Of a stretch of DNA of 64,000 bases, positions 46,132-49,100 are shown one piece after another. The stretch is from NCBI RefSeq assembly GCF_022846255.1, contig NZ_AP025682.1; one strand, given 5' to 3'. The position numbers are program-made. The stretch's first letter is position 1. Every line of letters starts with the position of its first letter. Source of the stretch: Escherichia coli. Its GTDB lineage: Bacteria > Pseudomonadota > Gammaproteobacteria > Enterobacterales > Enterobacteriaceae.

Positions 46132-49100
46132 TAAATAAAACGGGAGGTGAAGGTGCCTCCCGTTTTTAGATTGTTTTCAATTGATTGATAATGAAAGGAT
46201 TCGCTTGCAAAAGCAGGAGCAATTTTCGGGGTGCTCCGGTAGGCTGACGGCGTTTGGTTTCCCAGCTTTTGACCAGGTCATAACTTACCCCTACGGCGAC
46301 AGCAAAATCTTGCTGACGTAAACCCGTTGCTTCACGGATCGCTTTTACATCGATTTCGCTAAAAGTATGGACGTGCTCTGGTTCAGGCGTTTCTTCACCC
46401 TTTTCGATGCGTACCATTTCTTCTGCGCTGGCAAGAAGATCAGCAAATAATTCATCTTTCATCTGTTTTCAATGCCTCCGTTGACATTTCGGCCATGGTG
46501 GAATTTGTGGAGCTTCAACATTAAAGCAGCTTCTCGGACAATAGTTTCAATGCCTTTCTTTGTTCTTCTGTTAAATCATCCTGTTCATTTTTAGGATAAA
46601 TCAACGCCAGATAAATTCGGCCATTGCGTGTTACGTTGTAATAAATTATCCGAATGCCACCCCGTTTCCCCATTCCAGAACGGTTCCAGCGAATTTTTCT
46701 AAAACTGCCTGTGCCTGCGATAATGTCACCGGCAGTGGGATCTTGAATGAGTAGTTCCTGAAAAGCCCGGAACTCATCATCAGGTAGCAATAACTGGCGG
46801 CGTTTGCTAAATCCTTGTAGTTCAATAAAGGTGAACATAATGCATCCTGCGGTCTATTGATAATTATAAGTGTACCGTGTACATATTGGTAGCTAATTAG
46901 ATAAAAAAACCCCTTATCCGTTTGGATAAGGGGTCAATGAGATATCAGCTGATTACAGCTTAGGACCAGCCGCTACCAGCGCGGCACCCGCTGGGGTGTC
47001 GGTGTATTTATCAAAGTTGTCGATAAACAGTTTCGCCAGGGTTTCGGCTTTTTCCTGCCACTGTTCCGGGGAAGCGTAGGTGTTACGCGGATCGAGGATC
47101 TTCGTGTCTACGCCCGGCAGTTCGGTTGGGATCGCCAGGTTAAACATCGGCAGAGTGAAGGTTTCTGCGTTATCCAGCGAACCGTTGAGGATGGCGTCGA
47201 TAATGGCGCGGGTATCTTTAATCGAGATACGTTTGCCAGTGCCGTTCCAGCCGGTGTTAACCAGATACGCCTGCGCGCCTGCCGCCTGCATACGTTTCAC
47301 CAGCACTTCTGCGTACTGAGTTGGGTGCAGCGACAGGAATGCCGCGCCGAAGCAGGCGGAGAAGGTTGGCGTCGGTTCGGTGATGCCGCGCTCTGTACCA
47401 GCCAGTTTGGCGGTGAAGCCAGAGAGGAAGTGGTACTGGGTTTGATCGGCAGTCAGGCGAGAAACCGGCGGCAACACGCCGAAAGCATCAGCAGTCAGGA
47501 AGATAACCTTAGTCGCGTGGCCCGCTTTGGAAACCGGTTTAACGATGTTATCGATGTGATAGATCGGATAAGAAACGCGGGTGTTCTCGGTTTTTGAACC
47601 ATCATCAAAGTCGATAGTGCCATCTTCACGCACGGTGACGTTTTCCAGCAGCGCATCGCGACGGATAGCGTTGTAGATTTCAGGTTCCGCTTCTTTCGAC
47701 AGCTTGATGGTTTTCGCGTAGCAGCCGCCTTCGAAGTTAAACACGCCGTCGTCATCCCAGCCGTGTTCGTCATCGCCAATCAGGCGGCGTTTCGGGTCGG
47801 TGGAAAGGGTGGTTTTACCGGTGCCGGAAAGGCCGAAGAACACCGCAACATCGCCTTTCTCGCCAACGTTGGCGGAGCAGTGCATAGAAGCGATACCTTT
47901 CAGCGGCAGCAGGTAGTTCATCATTGAGAACATCCCTTTCTTCATTTCGCCGCCGTACCAGGTGCCGCCAATCAGCTGCATGCGCTCGGTCAGGTTAAAC
48001 GCCACGAAGTTTTCGGAGTTCAGACCCTGTTCTTTCCACTGCGGGTTAGTGCACTTCGCGCCGTTCATAACGATAAAGTCTGGTTTGAAACCTGCCAGCT
48101 CTTCATCGCTCGGGCGAATAAACATGTTTTTGACAAAATGCGCCTGCCAGGCCACTTCGGTGATGAAACGGACGGAAAGACGAGTATCCGGGTTCGCACC
48201 ACAGAAGGCGTCGACAACGAACAGACGTTTGCCGGAAAGCTGCCTGGTCACCAGGCCTTTCAGATGCTGCCAGGTTTCCGGAGAGAGAGGTTTGTTGTCG
48301 TTCTTACCTTTGCCTTTGTCTGCCCACCAGAAAGTATCGCGAGTGGTATCGTCACGAACGATATACTTATCTTTCGGTGAACGACCGGTGAAGATCCCGG
48401 TATCGACGGCAACGGCACCCAGATTAGTTAACACCCCGCGCTCATAACCGGTCAGGCTCGGGTCCAGCTCTTCCTGATACAGCAGATCGTAGCTTGGGTT
48501 GTAAACGATATCATGTACGTCACTGATACCATAAGCCTCGAGTTCTTGCGGGGTCAAACCATTGTTAACGCGCATTTCACTGCTCCTTAGCCAATATGTA
48601 TTGCCTGAATAGTAAAGTCTTTTTGGGGGTGTTAACCGCGACAAGGCTCATAGATTTACGTATCTGGAGAAATTCATATTTGACAAAAAACTCCGTGATT
48701 CCTGTCACGAAACGGTTGCTATTATCGCAGAAATAGCATTTTAGGTGTGGAAAATGTTCTCAAAAGGTTAAATCTTGGTTTATATGGCGAGAATATTGTG
48801 AGTGGAATCGCATTCATGAATGAAATTGATGCAAATTCAATCGGTAAAGTATCGATTCACCACGCTAACTTTTTTTGATTATTTTCTGAAAAAAGCAAAA
48901 TACTACTGCCCGGATGCGATAATTAACCCACCTTTTGATTCTGGATAAACAACATGGATAACGTTGAACTTTCACCGGCAACACGCTGGGGGATGATTGC
49001 TACCGGATTACTTCAGGGGTTGGTTTGCTACCTGCTGATCGCCTGGCTTGCCGGAAAAAATCTCAGTTGGATTGTTTATGGCGTGCCTGCGACCGTCGCG

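Follow-up and report, generated by a model that had tools for sequence, protein, structure and literature searches.

Introduction

The closest described relatives of the locus reported here are type II toxin–antitoxin (TA) systems of the HigB2/HigA2 family. In HigB2 of Vibrio cholerae (VcHigB2), alanine substitutions at Arg51, Arg64, Tyr82, and Lys84 cut activity 170- to 3000-fold, and an IIYY strand of the toxin slides upon antitoxin binding; the N-terminal peptide of VcHigA2 alone suffices for toxin neutralisation (PMC5416850). VcHigA2 protects an inverted repeat, TGTACGC-N5-GCGTACA, between the -35 and -10 elements (PMC11006873). The active site of RelE has been described as almost identical to that of VcHigB2, and HigB toxins of the Rts1/Gp49 type as a distinct subfamily without helix alpha3 (PMC5416850). 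In HigBA2 of the Acinetobacter baumannii plasmid pAB120, the toxin is a ribonuclease, both the antitoxin and the complex act as autorepressors, and the module stabilises plasmids (PMC5906591). Here, we describe a pair of small genes between envZ and pck in a 64-kb stretch of the Escherichia coli contig NZ_AP025682.1. This stretch is referred to as the window, and all unlabelled coordinates are positions in it. Judged by homology, gene order, and promoter architecture, the pair is very probably a chromosomal type II TA operon of the HigB2/HigA2 family.

Identity of the Toxin and Antitoxin

An initial annotation, made from the sequence of the window alone, had proposed two minus-strand genes for proteins of 105 and 98 amino acids (aa) in toxin-first order. 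Both are present in the list of open reading frames (ORFs), separated by 58 nt (Table 1). The 105-aa protein is basic, as had been stated (isoelectric point 9.75), and the 98-aa protein is acidic (5.37).

Searching the PDB with the 105-aa protein returned five distinct solved chains, all of which were V. cholerae HigB-2 (5ja9/5ja8/8a0x; E ~1e-23, residues 3-100); neither ParE nor RelE chains were among the matches at E <= 1. Identical residues were found at 48 of the 98 positions aligned with VcHigB2 (49%). The residues R50, R63, Y81, and K83 correspond to VcHigB2 R51, R64, Y82, and K84 and were invariant in 21 sequences; they are kept in this toxin, in 20 relatives, and in VcHigB2. I64-I65-Y66-Y67 is the counterpart of the IIYY strand. 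The only family reported by a Pfam scan (E <= 10) was PF06296, RelE, to which HigB2 belongs (E 1e-5), and no NCBIfam toxin family was matched. The initial designation of this protein as RelE/HigB/Gp49-like can therefore be kept in its RelE/HigB2 part. Membership in the Gp49/PF05973 HigB-like family was rejected, since neither PF05973 nor HigB of Proteus vulgaris was matched in the Pfam scan or the PDB search.

The 98-aa protein scored 75.1 bits against the NCBIfam equivalog model for NadS (NF041265; cut-off 60), and PGAP annotates its gene as nadS. Its residues 4-94 were matched by HigA-2 structures from the PDB (E 5e-5 to 2e-4), and its identity to VcHigA2 is 29%. A C-terminal XRE-type helix-turn-helix (HTH) had been noticed in the initial annotation; it was recovered by the Pfam models HTH_31/HTH_3 at residues 39-76. 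The N-terminal residues 1-22 are nearly invariant across the Enterobacterales and correspond to the neutralising peptide of VcHigA2. This protein is predicted to consist of an N-terminal toxin-binding segment followed by a C-terminal XRE HTH domain for dimerisation and DNA binding.

A relationship to MqsA was also considered. The model TIGR03830 (MqsA) scored 31.1 bits (cut-off 61.8; E 1.7e-7), with only the HTH part aligned (profile positions 63-126), and PF15731 matched the C-terminal HTH part alone (E 0.11). Membership of the antitoxin in this family was rejected because the score is below the cut-off, the N-terminal region of the MqsA model is unmatched, and the toxin is not MqsR-like.

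The genome of E. coli K-12 MG1655 encodes a paralog of the antitoxin, YiaG (b3555; locus L047, 2479-2769), a protein of 96 aa that is 40% identical to it over 89 residues. No HigB2-like gene is located beside yiaG in this genome, which makes YiaG an orphan. The second-best NCBIfam family of the antitoxin, PRK10072, corresponds to YiaG; its score of 65.5 bits is below the cut-off of 110, which identifies YiaG as a paralog and a different gene. YbaQ, examined as another candidate K-12 paralog, was rejected for having no similarity to the antitoxin. A transposon-reporter study provided the first expression evidence for a PGAP-annotated "nadS" of K-12 BW25113, locus RS26030, which is absent from EcoCyc (PMC12350097).

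Presumed Promoter and Operator

The minus strand 5' of the toxin start codon reads ...CCAATATGTACACGGTACACTTATAATTATCAATAGACCGCAGGATGCATT-ATG. The initial annotation had pointed to a perfect TATAAT and an adjacent direct repeat, GTACAC-G-GTACAC, in this region. Both are present, with the repeat at 46882-46870 on the minus strand. Since GTAC is self-complementary, however, the direct repeat is at the same time a 13-bp palindrome, TGTAC-N3-GTACA, and is better read as such; it ends 2 nt upstream of the -10 hexamer. This is the sole GTACNNNGTAC within the window and the presumed operator of the operon.

Such a single site is not significant by itself: 25 of 100 shuffled versions of the window contained at least one GTAC-N3-GTAC. 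Its significance comes from a comparison with other species, which covered 27 loci coding for a toxin relative. In 26 of these loci, the motif occurs within 130 nt upstream of the toxin start, with 44 copies in total, versus 1 copy in the remaining ~217 kb (~2700-fold enrichment). The GTAC cores are constant and the N3 spacer is variable across the loci, as expected for a protein-binding site. Thus, TGTAC-N3-GTACA is the likely operator, and the earlier proposal of an operator adjoining the -10 hexamer is backed by phylogenetic footprinting.

Most of the related loci possess two copies of GTAC-N3-GTAC, about 30 bp apart, which are arranged around a -35 element of the TTGA type. The proximal palindrome abuts a -10-like hexamer in all related loci. 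The loci between envZ and pck (those of E. coli, E. albertii, Citrobacter, and Kluyvera) have only this proximal copy; there, the terminator of pck occupies the place of the distal copy and the -35 element, and the -10 hexamer matches or nearly matches the consensus (TATAAT or TATACT). A CAGG(G/A)A motif was found at the Shine-Dalgarno position in most related loci.

Sequence Conservation and Disabled Toxin Alleles

Strong purifying selection acts on both genes. In comparisons with Citrobacter and Kluyvera, in which synonymous sites are near saturation, the nonsynonymous divergence (dN) of the toxin gene was 0.11-0.135 and its ratio to the synonymous divergence (dN/dS) was ~0.04-0.06. The corresponding values for the antitoxin gene were 0.04 and ~0.015. 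In nearly all comparisons within the Enterobacterales, conservation was higher for the antitoxin than for the toxin (for example, 94-95% vs. 78-83% identity).

The toxin gene is frameshifted or truncated beside an intact antitoxin gene in five loci, namely those of Photorhabdus bodei (L024), Enterobacteriaceae B14 (L025), Photobacterium (L026), Phytobacter (L027), and Kluyvera sichuanensis (L029). The antitoxins encoded in the four loci from Enterobacterales are 86-94% identical to that of the window, and the one from the more distant Photobacterium is 61% identical. The decayed locus of K. sichuanensis occupies the envZ-pck site. A disabled toxin also occurs in E. coli. In the allele of the Nissle type (three sampled genomes, Nissle 1917 among them), a clustered substitution of GATGAG by AAGTAG results in D21K and an amber codon at position 22, while a 7-bp deletion takes out one GTACACG unit and halves the operator; the antitoxin protein is unchanged. 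An allele at least 99% identical to this one was found in 107 of the 1330 E. coli genomes that carry the module.

Several of these features would be explained if the antitoxin had a selected function of its own beyond the control of its neighbour, such as immunity against plasmid- or phage-borne HigB2-type toxins (anti-addiction) or regulation of other genes. A function of this kind would account for the higher conservation of the antitoxin, its survival beside a decayed toxin in the Nissle lineage and at least five other genera, the half-operator promoter of Nissle, and the orphan YiaG. We regard it as a rather unlikely addition to the role in a TA pair. A further-reaching proposal is that the antitoxin is the selected part, either acting on its own as a NadS-type regulator or conferring immunity to incoming HigB2 toxins, and that the toxin is a dispensable, decaying passenger. 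The conservation pattern, the decayed or truncated toxins beside intact antitoxins, the unaltered antitoxin protein of the Nissle-type allele, and the retention of YiaG in K-12 would all fit this proposal. It is nevertheless improbable, because the toxin ORF of the window is intact with every catalytic residue in place, the toxin is annotated as intact in 12 other inspected genomes of non-Nissle type, and its dN/dS indicates strong purifying selection instead of decay.

Organization of the envZ-pck Junction

The TA pair is located downstream of pck on the same strand and is convergent with envZ (Table 1). The initial annotation had placed it between the terminators of envZ and pck. Both hairpins are indeed present, but the terminator of pck extends over 46908-46935, not 46903-46934, and is itself strain-variable.

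Table 1. Features of the envZ-pck junction in the window and position of the Nissle 1917 allele.
Feature	Coordinates	Strand	Basis
envZ	44782-46134	+	PGAP annotation in identical genome
Bidirectional intrinsic terminator common to envZ (+) and the TA operon (-)	46137-46166	both	terminator scan, fold
Strain-variable 785-bp segment	46167-46951		blastn against K-12
Antitoxin gene, 98 aa, HigA2/NadS family	46166-46462	minus	ORF list, NadS profile, HTH
Toxin-antitoxin intergenic spacer, 58 nt	46463-46520	minus	ORF list
Putative toxin gene, 105 aa, predicted HigB2 subfamily of RelE-type ribosome-dependent mRNA endonucleases	46521-46838	minus	
Shine-Dalgarno-like AGGA, 6 nt 5' of toxin ATG	46845-46848	minus	sequence
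-10 hexamer TATAAT of presumed operon promoter	46863-46868	minus	sequence
Presumed operator TGTAC-CGT-GTACA, 13-bp palindrome	46871-46883		sequence, comparison across species
Intrinsic terminator of pck	46908-46935	minus	terminator scan, fold
pck	46953-48575	minus	PGAP annotation in identical genome
Nissle 1917 allele	L032, NZ_CP058217.1, 1990-2416 (= window 46521-46951)		sequence comparison

In the minus-strand RNA, the hairpin on the envZ side consists of an 11-bp stem followed by UUUUAUUU (-17.8 kcal/mol; z -6.5 versus shuffled sequences), and the antitoxin stop codon (46168-46166) abuts or enters this stem. The same hairpin is conserved in K-12, where it is the only strong terminator between the convergent envZ and pck genes. 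The terminator of pck is a 12-bp hairpin followed by U7 (-26.6 kcal/mol; z -6.2 versus shuffled sequences). It has no counterpart in K-12, and a related hairpin occurs at this position in Citrobacter and Kluyvera. Because pck immediately precedes the TA operon in the same orientation, its transcription could conceivably read through into the operon; the apparent strength of the pck terminator argues against it.

As revealed by blastn, homology to K-12 MG1655 stops where the envZ terminator ends (46166) and restarts one base outside the stop codon of pck (46952); the pck terminator therefore belongs to the variable segment. The interval between these points measures 785 bp in the window and 43 bp, of unrelated sequence, in K-12. 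The local alignment score of the two segments was 16, versus a mean of 16.1 for shuffled sequences; the K-12 segment thus bears no trace of the cassette, a result that favours neither insertion nor deletion. The G+C content of the variable segment is 0.429, compared to 0.573 in envZ and 0.543 in pck. Neither a target duplication nor direct or terminal inverted repeats flank 46167-46951, and no transposase or integrase gene was found within the segment or beside the relatives of the module in Klebsiella and Leclercia. Based on these negative results, an insertion borne by a transposon or an insertion sequence was rejected. The junction is a replacement polymorphism of 785 bp vs. 43 bp. The module had initially been described as inserted; what the comparison shows is a replacement with neither a target duplication nor terminal repeats. 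Since the envZ-pck site is also occupied in Citrobacter, Kluyvera, and E. albertii, both gain and loss are possible.

No significant RNA structure was detected in the 58-nt spacer between the two genes (z +1.0), and the whole window yielded zero Rfam matches. Spacer length among the relatives ranges between -4 and 85 nt, and the one recurring element is a ribosome-binding motif of the GAGG type. In many relatives (loci L004, L009, and L023 were compared), GAGGT precedes the start codon of the antitoxin gene by about 7 nt. The E. coli spacer (46463-46475) has GAAAA at this place, with the nearest GGAGG 12 nt upstream. Initiation of antitoxin translation may thus be weaker or differently coupled in E. 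coli.

Distribution in E. coli and Other Genera

A total of 5426 complete E. coli genomes were surveyed. The module was present in 1330 of them, in all of which PGAP annotates the pair, and the junction was of the K-12 type in 4073. All 1334 copies are chromosomal, and 1328 are of full length. The carriers include KO11FL (E. coli W), O104:H4, and Nissle 1917. The earlier suggestion that the module is absent from K-12 and strain-variable agrees with both this survey and the comparison of the junctions.

Two records from this species deserve mention. The genome NZ_CP026085.1 (4.83 Mb; H88), labelled as E. coli DH5alpha, carries the module, although K-12 MG1655 lacks it; this label or the assembly is probably wrong. 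A putative third allele of the junction in E. coli BS-04 (L045, NZ_CP172819.1, 675-1034) was rejected as an assembly artefact because of its long homopolymer runs.

Among GTDB species representatives, the same envZ-pck junction is occupied in E. albertii, Citrobacter gillenii, C. portucalensis, Kluyvera ascorbata, and K. sichuanensis. At other sites, the cassette was found in Leclercia, Klebsiella, Enterobacter, Budvicia, Yersinia, Photorhabdus, Edwardsiella, and others. The toxin-first order is kept in 26 related loci. In Klebsiella and Leclercia, the two genes form a solitary cassette between housekeeping or metabolic genes. Plasmids and phages are essentially devoid of close relatives (>60% identity). 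Members of the wider toxin family are common on plasmids; of the 833 records, the largest group comes from Acinetobacter (304 records, <60% identity).

The cassette is a low-G+C accessory element, which is dimorphic in E. coli and common to Citrobacter and Kluyvera at the envZ-pck site. Its shared architecture across three genera argues for its age. Between E. coli and Citrobacter or Kluyvera, synonymous sites of the TA genes are near saturation (proportion of differing sites, pS, 0.70-0.80), and the flanks show values of ~0.5; with only ~70 synonymous sites per gene and a weaker codon bias, this contrast does not separate ancient shared ancestry from independent acquisition.

The junction of E. 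albertii NBRC 107761 (L003, 1973-8315) has a composite structure. It includes an E. coli-like block made of the 3' end of pck, the TA pair, and the final 245 bp of envZ, which is 97.5-100% identical to the window vs. 92-94% deeper in pck. Beyond the block lie two short duplications of parts of pck, then a 2.7-kb island with four ORFs, one of which encodes a SUKH-1/SMI1-KNR4 protein, and finally the native envZ. The module of E. albertii seems to have been imported by recombination, and the envZ-pck junction seems to accept other accessory DNA as well, to judge from this island.

The distribution of the module bears on the suggestion that it serves mainly in anti-phage abortive infection, with phage infection releasing the toxin and translation being shut down. 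Its strain-variable occurrence in low-G+C accessory DNA would suit such a role, as would the SUKH-1 immunity-type gene in the E. albertii island and the fact that both proteins match PHROG families, which implies that relatives occur in phage genomes. We nevertheless give this suggestion little credence. The toxin matched 0 PADLOC defence families, the antitoxin matched only generic HTH models, and in Klebsiella and Leclercia the module is flanked by genes for housekeeping or metabolism instead of defence islands.

Proposed Mechanism and Assessment

By homology, the 105-aa protein would be a RelE-like endonuclease that enters the ribosomal A site and cleaves translating mRNA, so that growth stops. 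The 98-aa protein would neutralise it, with the conserved N-terminal segment folding onto the toxin. A dimer of the antitoxin, formed via the C-terminal HTH, would repress the operon, probably helped by the toxin. As read from the sequence, transcription of the operon would start just downstream of the pck terminator and end at the bidirectional terminator of envZ. Its physiological role might be selfish maintenance, a stress response, or phage defence; the initial annotation had suggested stabilisation of the locus or abortive infection.

The assignment to the HigB2/HigA2 family agrees with every feature of this family that can be looked for in a sequence: toxin-first order, HigB2 homology, the active site, the plan of the antitoxin, and an inverted-repeat operator at the promoter. 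Several observations weigh against it. The scan for consensus sigma-70 promoters did not call the operon promoter because of its poor -35 element. Three of the four base-contacting residues of VcHigA2 differ in the E. coli antitoxin (R68D, E71K, and N72S; R77 is kept), and the half-sites are spaced by N3 vs. 9 nt between the GTAC cores in Vibrio. Owing to these differences, the operator assignment relies on cross-species footprinting and not on homology to the Vibrio site. About 8% of the carriers possess an inactivated toxin, which implies that the toxin is dispensable in some lineages. A literature search gave no experiment or paper on this E. coli locus, and we infer toxicity, neutralisation, and DNA binding from sequence comparisons. 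Finally, it is hardly credible that the toxin is a ParE-like gyrase poison instead of an mRNA endonuclease: RelE and ParE share a fold and the RefSeq PGAP product name, "type II toxin-antitoxin system RelE/ParE family toxin", covers both, but all PDB matches were HigB-2 and zero were ParE, the RelE-like catalytic quartet is conserved, and the partner is HigA2-like.

The pair was already annotated by PGAP and is a new E. coli member of a well-studied family, which leaves the current understanding of TA systems unchallenged. The occurrence of a HigB2/HigA2 module at a fixed junction of the core genome in a quarter of E. coli strains is mostly a matter of annotation tidying. The module does provide a natural allelic series for the study of chromosomal TA function, in which it is absent, intact (O104:H4 and E. 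coli W/KO11FL), or present with a toxin nonsense mutation and an operator deletion (Nissle 1917, with a disabled toxin). The conserved GTAC-N3-GTAC operator is a concrete, testable prediction, and so is the higher conservation of the antitoxin over the toxin.

Comparison with Known Systems

RelBE of K-12 belongs to the same toxin superfamily and, like the 105-aa toxin as predicted by homology, RelE is a ribosome-dependent mRNA cleaver. The order of genes in relBE is antitoxin-first, in contrast to the module described here. Its antitoxin, RelB, is of the ribbon-helix-helix type instead of the HTH type. The toxin-first order and an HTH antitoxin are shared with HigBA of P. vulgaris Rts1 and with HigB of the Gp49/PF05973 type, the toxins of which belong to the separate subfamily mentioned above. 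The similarity to MqsA of the MqsRA system is weak and confined to the C-terminal HTH domain. The operator of MqsA is also a short palindrome with a 3-nt spacer.

HigBA2 of pAB120 displays the same reverse-order higBA arrangement (PMC5906591). It is plasmid-borne, whereas 1334 of 1334 E. coli copies are chromosomal; the matches on Acinetobacter plasmids are <60% identical.

The closest similarity is to V. cholerae HigB2/HigA2 (PDB 5ja8, 5ja9, 5jaa, 5j9i, 8a0w, and 8a0x; PMC5416850, PMC11006873). Both are toxin-first operons, their toxins have 49% identity and agree in the active-site residues and the IIYY strand, and VcHigA2 likewise combines an N-terminal neutralising segment with a C-terminal HTH and has a TGTAC inverted-repeat operator between -35 and -10. 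The two systems differ in their antitoxins, which share 29% identity and have only one of the four base-contacting residues in common, in the operator, which is TGTACGC-N5-GCGTACA in V. cholerae and TGTAC-N3-GTACA in E. coli, and in the location of the E. coli copy between core genes.

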